From: Shigella phage vB_SHGBLB0004
Length of the DNA stretch: 11,151 nt
Sequence record: PV654518
Reading direction: 5' to 3' (one strand)
In this document: in pieces, positions 10,170 through 10,769 of the stretch
Numbering within the stretch: position 1 is the stretch's first letter
Layout of the letters: each line of letters opens with the position of its first letter
Position numbers and translations under genes: made by a program
Notes under the pieces: model-generated
The model's input: only the letters and a program-made list of their open reading frames with translations
Told to the model about the DNA's origin: nothing
Database searches by the model: none

Positions 10170-10769
10170 CTAGCCTATTACTATAAATTTAGGGTCTAGG
10201 AAAAAAGGCTCATACATTCTTCCCTTTGATACTTCTAATATAGATTCAACTTCCGCTAGTAGTTCATCTACTGATGTTTTAGCATCCGATAAATCTATTT
10301 CCTGTTCTTTAACGTAGTGATTAATGCTATTCCATATTTGACGATAATCTAACGCCGCTGCTATTTCCCCTTGGCTCTTTAAGTATTGAGTTATTTTACT
10401 TTGCACCTCAAAGAACTTTTTCATTTTCACTTTTAAATCTTTAACTGAATTATATGTGATCCCAGTTATGTTTGCTATTTCCTTTGCGTTATTTGTAGCT
10501 CCTGTTATTGTTGACGTTTCCGCTTTGAGGAATTTTAATAACCTACCAGCCATGTTTTGAACTTCCTGATGCGTCTTACCTTTAACACTGAATTTAGCAA
10601 TACCCTCATTTTTTAATGTCTTTAAAGCGGGGCTGTCTGCCCAGTCTCTATTTTCCAGTCGTTTCATTCTCTTATTTGCGATAGCTGATAATCTACTAAT
10701 CTCTTTTCTGAATGCTTGTGCGTCTAATAACCAAATAGTATCTTCATTAATGCTAGTTCTGCGAGCCAT
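10170..10769 (-). CDS. Putative terminal protein (replication primer), 199 aa
   Basis: It lies immediately upstream of, and is co-transcribed with, the protein-primed polymerase, as phi29 gene 3 does. The N-terminus is basic and starts MARRTS (phi29 TP starts MARSP as I recall). Strong RBS AAGAGGG. It is shorter than known terminal proteins and the priming residue is not identifiable by eye. Confidence 0.55.
   Translation of the reverse strand: MARRTSINEDTIWLLDAQAFRKEISRLSAIANKRMKRLENRDWADSPALKTLKNEGIAKFSVKGKTHQEVQNMAGRLLKFLKAETSTITGATNNAKEIANITGITYNSVKDLKVKMKKFFEVQSKITQYLKSQGEIAAALDYRQIWNSINHYVKEQEIDLSDAKTSVDELLAEVESILEVSKGRMYEPFFLDPKFIVIG

Follow-up and report, generated by a model that had tools for sequence, protein, structure and literature searches.

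Which protein primes DNA synthesis at the ends of the chromosome of Shigella phage vB_SHGBLB0004, and could it be the product of the 199-codon open reading frame, here called ORF199, that lies beside the DNA polymerase gene? The window, by which we mean the whole 11,151-bp stretch of DNA that was analysed, is a complete linear phage genome, and its inverted terminal repeats (ITRs) are perfect, the first 60 nt being the exact reverse complement of the last 60 nt. Because the genome is linear, carries ITRs and encodes a polymerase of the PF03175 family, a protein primer is needed. The mechanism of protein-primed replication is known in detail for just a few phages, and to our knowledge the terminal proteins (TPs) of the characterized phages have no sequence similarity to one another, so the TP of each new lineage must be assigned afresh. 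A first-pass annotation of this DNA had left ORF199 as either a minimal TP or a different replication accessory protein, and it is this choice that we take up here.

The setting of the gene is compact. The minus strand carries one string of genes, which begins with an 80-aa ORF (orf80) and continues with ORF199, a 709-aa family B DNA polymerase (polB), a phi29 gp16-like packaging ATPase, a holin, a phi29-like connector, a 182-aa ORF, a phi29-like major capsid protein, two tail-knob-like proteins and a CHAP endolysin; on the plus strand, three small ORFs (110, 50 and 101 aa) point inward from the left end. A promoter-like site beside the right ITR heads the orf80–ORF199–polB string, a pattern match and not proof of a promoter (Table 1). 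The product of orf80 has no family match in Pfam, PHROGs or NCBIfam, and among 30 related loci that measure 10 kb or more, 15 have a detectable homologue of it. At the nucleotide level (megablast), the whole genome has no match in the phage collection; at the protein level, its relatives are the 10–12-kb Astrithrvirus-like podophages of Gammaproteobacteria, namely Salmonella phages astrithr, Astrid and assan, Acinetobacter phage Phanie, Pectobacterium phage DU_PP_III, Enterobacter phage Entb_47 and Vibrio phage K58 g2. The ITRs measure 171 bp in Phanie and 18–639 bp in other relatives. The present genome starts with a reiterated 5'-CACAC, and relatives start with GGG.

Table 1. Features of the ORF199 locus and of the genome ends (positions in the 11,151-bp window)
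Feature	Position	Strand	Description and basis
Left ITR	1..60		5'-CACACCGG...; 60 nt, 100% complementary to 11092-11151
polB, protein-primed family B DNA polymerase, presumed partner of ORF199	8038..10167	-	709 aa; PF03175 E=4.7e-19; phrog_1907 E=5.8e-76
ORF199, candidate terminal protein	10170..10769 (stop codon included)	-	ATG 10769-10767, TAG stop 10172-10170; ORF list and homologues
Acidic C-terminal part, residues 142-199	10173..10346	-	helices 142-155 and 167-185, tail with conserved aromatic; low-confidence model
Tyr142 codon TAT	10344..10346	-	best candidate priming hydroxyl; alignment column
N-terminal domain, residues 1-132	10374..10769	-	basic, all-helical; helices 17-40, 47-54, 67-82, 88-102 and 109-132 (AF2)
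Residues 85-87, Thr-Ser-Thr	10509..10517	-	conserved turn between helices 67-82 and 88-102
Residues 31-38, ANKRMKRL	10656..10679	-	top-conserved family motif A-N-K-R-x-x-R-L
orf80, 80-aa ORF	10773..11015	-	first gene of the ORF199 string, directly upstream of ORF199
Shine-Dalgarno GAGGG	10777..10781	-	7 nt before the ORF199 ATG, within the 3' end of orf80; read from sequence
Sigma-70-like promoter, TTGACA-18-TAATAT	11054..11083	-	10/12 matches; consensus scan; precedes orf80-ORF199-polB
Right ITR	11092..11151		60 nt, pairs with 1..60

ORF199 is a real ORF, and it is longer than chance would produce: in 200 shuffles of the window, the longest ATG-initiated ORF averaged 92 aa and reached 191 aa at most. 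Moreover, an identical protein was called in two independent sequencing runs, and together with the ORF list, the Shine-Dalgarno sequence and the homologues described below, these observations bear out the first-pass call of a 199-aa gene at this place. The product has a mass of 22.7 kDa and a pI of 9.35, and it starts with MARRTSINED. Its charge is distributed very unevenly. Residues 1–105 carry a net charge of +8 (pI 10.2), in agreement with the earlier remark that the N-terminus beginning MARRTS is basic, and residues 136–199 carry a net charge of -6 (pI 4.3–4.75).

The link between ORF199 and the polymerase gene is close. ORF199 ends 2 nt before polB starts, in a different reading frame, and the absence of an intergenic gap suggests that the two genes are co-transcribed. 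The polymerase itself is readily recognized, with FDIET at residues 38–42, YCEND at 188–192, DLTSSYP at 292–298, YADTDS at 517–522 and KRY at 590–592, and its sole sequence relative in the PDB is phi29 polymerase (E=1.5e-9). We considered whether the TP might be fused to the polymerase, as in the linear-plasmid type, and rejected this arrangement; the ExoI motif FDIET already stands at residues 38–42, too near the N-terminus for a fused TP to precede it. The order of the two genes is that of proven systems: in phi29 (gp3), Cp-1 (orf4), PRD1 (P8) and Bam35 (ORF4), the TP gene precedes the polymerase gene and lies at most 22 nt from it or overlaps it, so the first-pass statement that ORF199 occupies the position of the TP gene in phi29-like genomes is upheld.

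Is this linkage a property of the family or an accident of one genome? Among loci found through an ORF199 family protein, by means of an alignment of the closer relatives of ORF199, the family gene lies immediately upstream of polB and in the same orientation in 70 of 70, with gaps between -74 and +65 nt; polB in turn is followed by the gene of the packaging ATPase in these 70 loci. As that set was chosen through the family protein itself, it is circular with regard to the presence of the gene, and for this reason a second set of loci was retrieved through the capsid protein. This search yielded 69 new loci, 64 of which contain the polymerase; the family gene stands directly upstream in all 57 that have upstream sequence, and the other seven, in which the polymerase gene starts at the contig end or no more than 165 nt from it, were left out. 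Of the two counts, the 57/57 alone is independent.

The family to which ORF199 belongs is a very large, unnamed environmental one, and 199 aa is a normal size within it. The protein is 48.6% identical to Phanie gp2 (CAI8715591.1) and 34.6% identical to astrithr gp02 (YP_009857578.1), with 78–90% of its length covered, and tblastn searches against cultured phages gave E values from 1e-48 to 4e-26. Homologues overall are 28–85% identical, and those from metagenomes comprise 31 proteins of 192–218 aa along with one partial sequence of 181 aa. When 1.84 billion cluster representatives were searched with the profile, 2,304 clusters (50% identity) passed E<=1e-3, of which 886 also passed E<=1e-10; when the names of family members were looked up in public records, nothing beyond 'hypothetical protein' was found.

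Statistics compiled from 169 full-length members (70%-non-redundant) describe a uniform architecture. Lengths range from 160 to 263 aa with a median of 204 aa, so that the first-pass description of ORF199 as unusually short holds against the four proven phage TPs (266, 230, 259 and 245 aa) but not against its own family. The first 60 residues are net basic in 96% of the 169 members and the last 25 net acidic in 78%; within the last six, 83% have an aromatic residue. In phi29 TP, the N-terminal, intermediate and priming domains carry charges of +7, +4 and -10, respectively; in other words, the basic-to-acidic polarity of ORF199 is that of phi29 TP, as judged from sequence, and the pattern is family-wide. 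Among the motifs, ANKRxxRL is invariant in alignments A1 and A2 and 86–96% conserved across 137 sequences (the query and 136 representatives of 50%-identity clusters), and full-length homology as well as the motifs ANKRxxRL, PA, FxxKGK, TSTxxG and Y142 are common to ORF199 and the Astrithrvirus gp2-like proteins. In some relatives of 300–325 aa, a module of ~95 residues (profile positions ~15–110) is tandemly duplicated.

Two AlphaFold2 models of the ORF199 monomer, built from 30 and 116 aligned sequences, agree in their main features. Both contain a confident all-helical domain at residues ~10–132 (pLDDT 82–96, as 10-residue block means over residues 11–120), and in both the C-terminal part, where the priming residue of a TP would be expected, is ill-defined (pLDDT 30–57). 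When predicted viral structures were searched with the model, the significant matches were uncharacterized proteins of 173–232 aa from small metagenomic podoviruses. One weaker match in this search is labelled Tectiviridae sp.

Do the standard collections recognize this protein? ORF199 has no match of known function in Pfam, PHROGs or NCBIfam; the best of the noise is phrog_16594 (E=0.0032, function unknown), the only match below 0.01 in these three collections. Against PDB sequences, searches with the single sequence and with the profile returned nothing credible, only helical and coiled-coil noise below threshold, and nucleoporin coiled coils were a noise match at E=0.0065; in fold, too, ORF199 resembles no PDB entry, nor the TPs of Cp-1, PRD1 and Bam35. 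The family of phi29 TP, PF05435, matches neither ORF199 (at E<=1) nor any of 66 diverse relatives; phi29 gp3, as the positive control, is found at E=1e-157. This negative result carries little weight, because the proven TPs of Cp-1, PRD1 and Bam35, run as controls, match no TP family either. The comparison with phi29 TP that the first-pass annotation had proposed did not reveal a relationship: aligned by hhalign to the proven TPs, the ORF199 family profile gave probabilities of 0.2% for phi29, 0.4% for Cp-1, 0.3% for PRD1 and 8.4% for Bam35, the last match spanning only eight residues (N-terminal MANKRLKK against ANKRxxRL), and the three-domain helical fold with its C-terminal four-helix priming bundle, as seen in the TP chain of PDB entry 2EX3, is not reproduced by the ORF199 model, which has no fold similarity to it.

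What else, then, could ORF199 be? [quoted passage not shown] However, the ORF199 model is all-helical and has no beta-strands, which fits neither an OB fold nor the phi29 p5-like fold. Clear homology to an SSB or to another non-TP family, the finding that the first-pass annotation had said would count against a TP, was sought in Pfam, PHROGs, NCBIfam, the PDB and by fold, and none emerged; no SSB family in the four sequence collections matches ORF199, and we find it scarcely credible that the protein is an SSB. A further possibility, which we judge quite improbable, is that ORF199 is a non-covalent accessory of replication or transcription (origin/ITR-binding, polymerase-loading, sigma-like or p4/p6-like) and that the true TP is a small, fast-evolving ORF. 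Its only support comes from fold matches with sigma-factor and repressor domains, which are at noise level; against it, if ORF199 had an accessory role, no plausible TP gene would be left in the genome. The other genes of the genome are structural, packaging or lysis genes, and the remaining ORFs without assigned function encode 50–182 aa and are detectable in 0–15 of 30 related genomes that are 10 kb or longer, i.e. in at most half of the relatives, an exclusion that favours ORF199 as the TP. There is also a precedent for assigning a TP in this manner. Bam35 ORF4 was predicted to be the TP from its synteny with the polymerase gene and its basic N-terminal half, and the prediction was then confirmed biochemically (PMC5175343); ORF199 has both of these attributes and adds charge polarity as a third. 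Moreover, for Astrid, DU_PP_III and Phanie the 2024 review (PMC11476376) reports a 'terminal protein (counterpart of phi29 p3-like)', the gene not being named, and cites HMM searches and structure predictions together with the Phanie study. Between the two roles that the first-pass annotation had left standing, the best-supported is that of a TP, an assignment that is contextual, without homology to any proven TP, and that draws on the linear genome with ITRs, the linkage to polB, the charge polarity and a conserved hydroxyl column. On these grounds, we consider it probable that ORF199 is the TP and serves as the protein primer for the adjacent family B DNA polymerase.

If ORF199 is the TP, which of its hydroxyls would prime? 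The protein contains 31 Ser, Thr and Tyr residues, and the first-pass view that no priming residue can be assigned is correct for the single sequence; it no longer holds once homologues are aligned, for two sites then stand out. At the Tyr142 column, 140 of the 169 non-redundant members have Tyr, 28 have Ser and one has Lys; 99.4% thus have a hydroxyl, and Phe never occurs. On a neighbour-joining tree, which is approximate, the column switches between Tyr and Ser at least 18 times. Other Tyr-rich columns of the same alignment swap mainly with Leu, Phe, Ile, Met and Val, and a column that keeps only the hydroxyl is what would be expected of a nucleophile. The Lys exception is probably sequence P0139, in which, in a separate MAFFT alignment, Lys stands at this position with a Tyr adjacent to it. 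Ten of the 28 relatives with Ser have a Tyr two residues upstream, at an otherwise hydrophobic position, and for those ten the shifted Tyr may serve instead. Tyr142 follows directly on a flexible linker and opens the acidic part, 57 residues from the C-terminus, a location comparable to those of Ser232/266, Tyr190/259 and Tyr194/245 in proven TPs. The second site, the Thr85-Ser86-Thr87 turn at the tip of the hairpin formed by helices 67–82 and 88–102, would place priming elsewhere in the same TP. Its motif T-S-T-x-x-G is among the most conserved of the family and invariant in the closer relatives, and the turn is modelled with confidence between its two helices, in a geometry like that of a bundle of helices with a priming loop at its end. 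Several observations speak against it, however. Hydroxyls occur at the three columns in 98.2%, 95.9% and 91.1% of the 169 members, and at no single position is the hydroxyl universal, as the variants NSL, TGT, DST and AST illustrate; the residues without a hydroxyl at position 85, Asp and Asn, are those that classically substitute at a helix N-cap. The motif is located in the basic half of the protein and falls inside the tandemly duplicated module, which would give some relatives two priming sites. In proven phage TPs, the priming residue is found in the last third of the chain. The turn is more likely a helix cap than a priming site, as far as the alignment can tell, and we regard priming from it as unlikely. 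Tyr142 is the best candidate for the priming hydroxyl and may well be that residue, with the proviso that conservation cannot prove chemistry.

Taken with the context of the gene, the reading of ORF199 as the TP lends itself to a molecular scheme. The orf80–ORF199–polB string would be transcribed from the promoter-like site beside the right ITR, and ORF199 and the polymerase would be translated in coupled fashion, as suggested by the near-contiguity of the two genes, to form a heterodimer. Residues 1–132, the basic and helical N-terminal domain, would bind DNA, the polymerase or both, and the acidic C-terminal part (residues 142–199) would fill the duplex-DNA channel of the polymerase, becoming ordered only upon binding. 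In the phi29 complex (2EX3 structure), it is the acidic priming domain of the TP that occupies this channel, and by analogy the acidic part of ORF199 might do likewise. The heterodimer would recognize the TP-capped ITR ends, and the polymerase would attach the first dNMP to the Tyr142 hydroxyl, or to that of Ser in about one-sixth of the relatives; the 5'-CACAC reiteration would then allow the end sequence to be recovered by slide-back or jump-back, if the assembled end is the true end. ORF199 would stay on both 5' ends and be packaged with the DNA by the gp16-like ATPase. In its most economical form, and this is a tentative proposal that we would sooner doubt than assume, the family would embody a minimal TP design: a basic helical module for binding DNA and polymerase, present in one or two copies, joined to an acidic segment for priming, just ~58 residues long, which would take up its fold on the polymerase, with a nucleophile that has switched between Tyr and Ser repeatedly within one homologous family. 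We know of no TP family for which such repeated Tyr/Ser switching of the priming nucleophile has been described.

How does ORF199 compare with the TPs that have been characterized? Like ORF199, phi29 gp3 is encoded upstream of a PF03175 polymerase in a linear genome with ITRs, is all-helical and has a basic N-terminus (MARSPR... in phi29, MARRTS... here). It differs in length (266 versus 199 aa) and has no similarity to ORF199 in sequence or fold, and gp3 primes from Ser232 in a four-helix priming domain of 94 residues, whereas the acidic C-terminal part of ORF199 has ~58 residues, with the candidate Tyr or Ser at 142. The TP of Cp-1 (orf4, 230 aa) is the shortest of the four proven phage TPs compared and still 31 residues longer than ORF199, to which it shows no homology; its N-terminus is basic, and the polymerase gene follows its gene directly, with an overlap. 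The Cp-1 TP primes from Thr. For PRD1 P8 (259 aa, Tyr190) and Bam35 ORF4 (245 aa, Tyr194), the resemblance lies in a gene just upstream of polB or overlapping it, a basic N-terminal half and a conserved Tyr that primes in the C-terminal third; both proteins are longer than ORF199, are not homologous to it and come from a different virus realm.

Closer to hand are the counterparts in Phanie (gp2), astrithr (gp02), DU_PP_III, Entb_47 and Vibrio K58 g2, which are true homologues of ORF199 (197–206 aa). As in the present phage, their genes lie directly upstream of polB in genomes of 10–12 kb, several of which have ITRs; their products have all been deposited as 'hypothetical protein', and astrithr gp02 has Ser at the position that matches Tyr142 of ORF199. 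At least one of these phages, Phanie, is a satellite of a myophage. That a TP is encoded in this clade had been stated before, and a TP is to be expected in a phi29-like genome; what is new here is the size and uniform architecture of the family, independent evidence that its linkage to the polymerase gene is invariant, the recognition that 199 aa is a normal length and a Tyr/Ser priming hypothesis that can be tested. We believe that the annotation 'putative terminal protein' is warranted for the ORF199 gene family. If the assignment is true, a 23-kDa TP and its polymerase would be a compact pair to consider for building orthogonal protein-primed replicons in Gram-negative hosts, and such a TP/polymerase pair, coming as it does from an enterobacterial phage, could serve engineering. 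Of the tailed phages known from Gram-negative bacteria, the smallest are those whose replication the ORF199 family likely primes.

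We find that the N-terminal module shared by ORF199, the 199-aa candidate terminal protein (TP), and its homologues behaves as an independent, repeatable domain, since its ~95 residues are tandemly duplicated in family members P0121, P0131, P0132 and P0157 (299-325 aa), where the C-terminal part occurs only once, after the duplicated modules. The duplicated module corresponds to profile positions ~15-110 and holds both the ANKRxxRL-type and the TSTxxG-type motif, the residues of which are variant in some copies. The top-conserved motif of the family, (I/M)ANKR(L/M)KRL, occupies ORF199 residues 31-38 and is similar to the extreme N-terminus of the proven TP of Bam35, MANKRLKK (L143:1408-1431, in the Bam35 locus). 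This likeness may be coincidence, as the hhalign probability is only 8%, over 8 residues only. In the neighboring protein-primed polymerase, residues ~98-106 read VHNLSYEFQF, an ExoII-like motif, and the Glu of NLSYE seems to stand at the position of the catalytic Asp of phi29 polymerase, whose ExoII sequence is HNLKFD.

Features of the window discussed here
Feature	Position	Strand	Remark
Inverted terminal repeats	1-60, 11092-11151		60 bp, perfect
Non-coding stretches	61-125, 979-1022, 11016-11091		sole ones in the window
ORFs of 110, 50 and 101 aa	within 126-978	+	three small left-end genes
ORFs of 166 and 655 aa	1475-3944	-	tail-knob-like
ExoII-like motif	9850-9876		polymerase
(I/M)ANKR(L/M)KRL motif	10656-10679		ORF199
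80-aa ORF	10773-11015	-	putative Cro/CI-type helix-turn-helix, judged by eye

The entire linear genome is enclosed by terminal repeats that begin 5'-CACACCGG, and initiation by slide-back or jump-back could use the CACAC reiteration at these termini. Because most relatives begin with 5'-GGG..., a few bases may be missing from the assembled ends. Very little non-coding space is present; an Rfam search returned no known RNA family at E<=1, phi29-type prohead RNA included, and no tRNAs were found. Should packaging depend on a pRNA as it does in phi29, this phage either lacks one or has one that differs from the known family.

The 80-aa ORF (…GLTQSQIYGSEKVKAVSAFENGRS…) looks by eye like a Cro/CI-type helix-turn-helix protein, a reading with no supporting match in Pfam, PHROG or NCBIfam; if it holds, this ORF would be the early regulator upstream of the TP and polymerase genes. 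At the left end, homologues are detectable in 0/30 (110 aa), 6/30 (50 aa) and 8/30 (101 aa) related genomes. Astrithrvirus-like phages encode an SSB counterpart, according to a 2024 review (PMC11476376); none of the three left-end ORFs has an SSB family match.

No tail-fibre gene was recognised in the window, and for this reason the phage might share the lifestyle of its Astrithrvirus-like relative Acinetobacter phage Aci01-2-Phanie, reported to be a satellite obliged to dock onto the tail of a helper myophage (PMC11476376). Tail-knob function appears to be divided between the 166-aa and 655-aa ORFs, and in Phanie it is likewise described as split over two genes.
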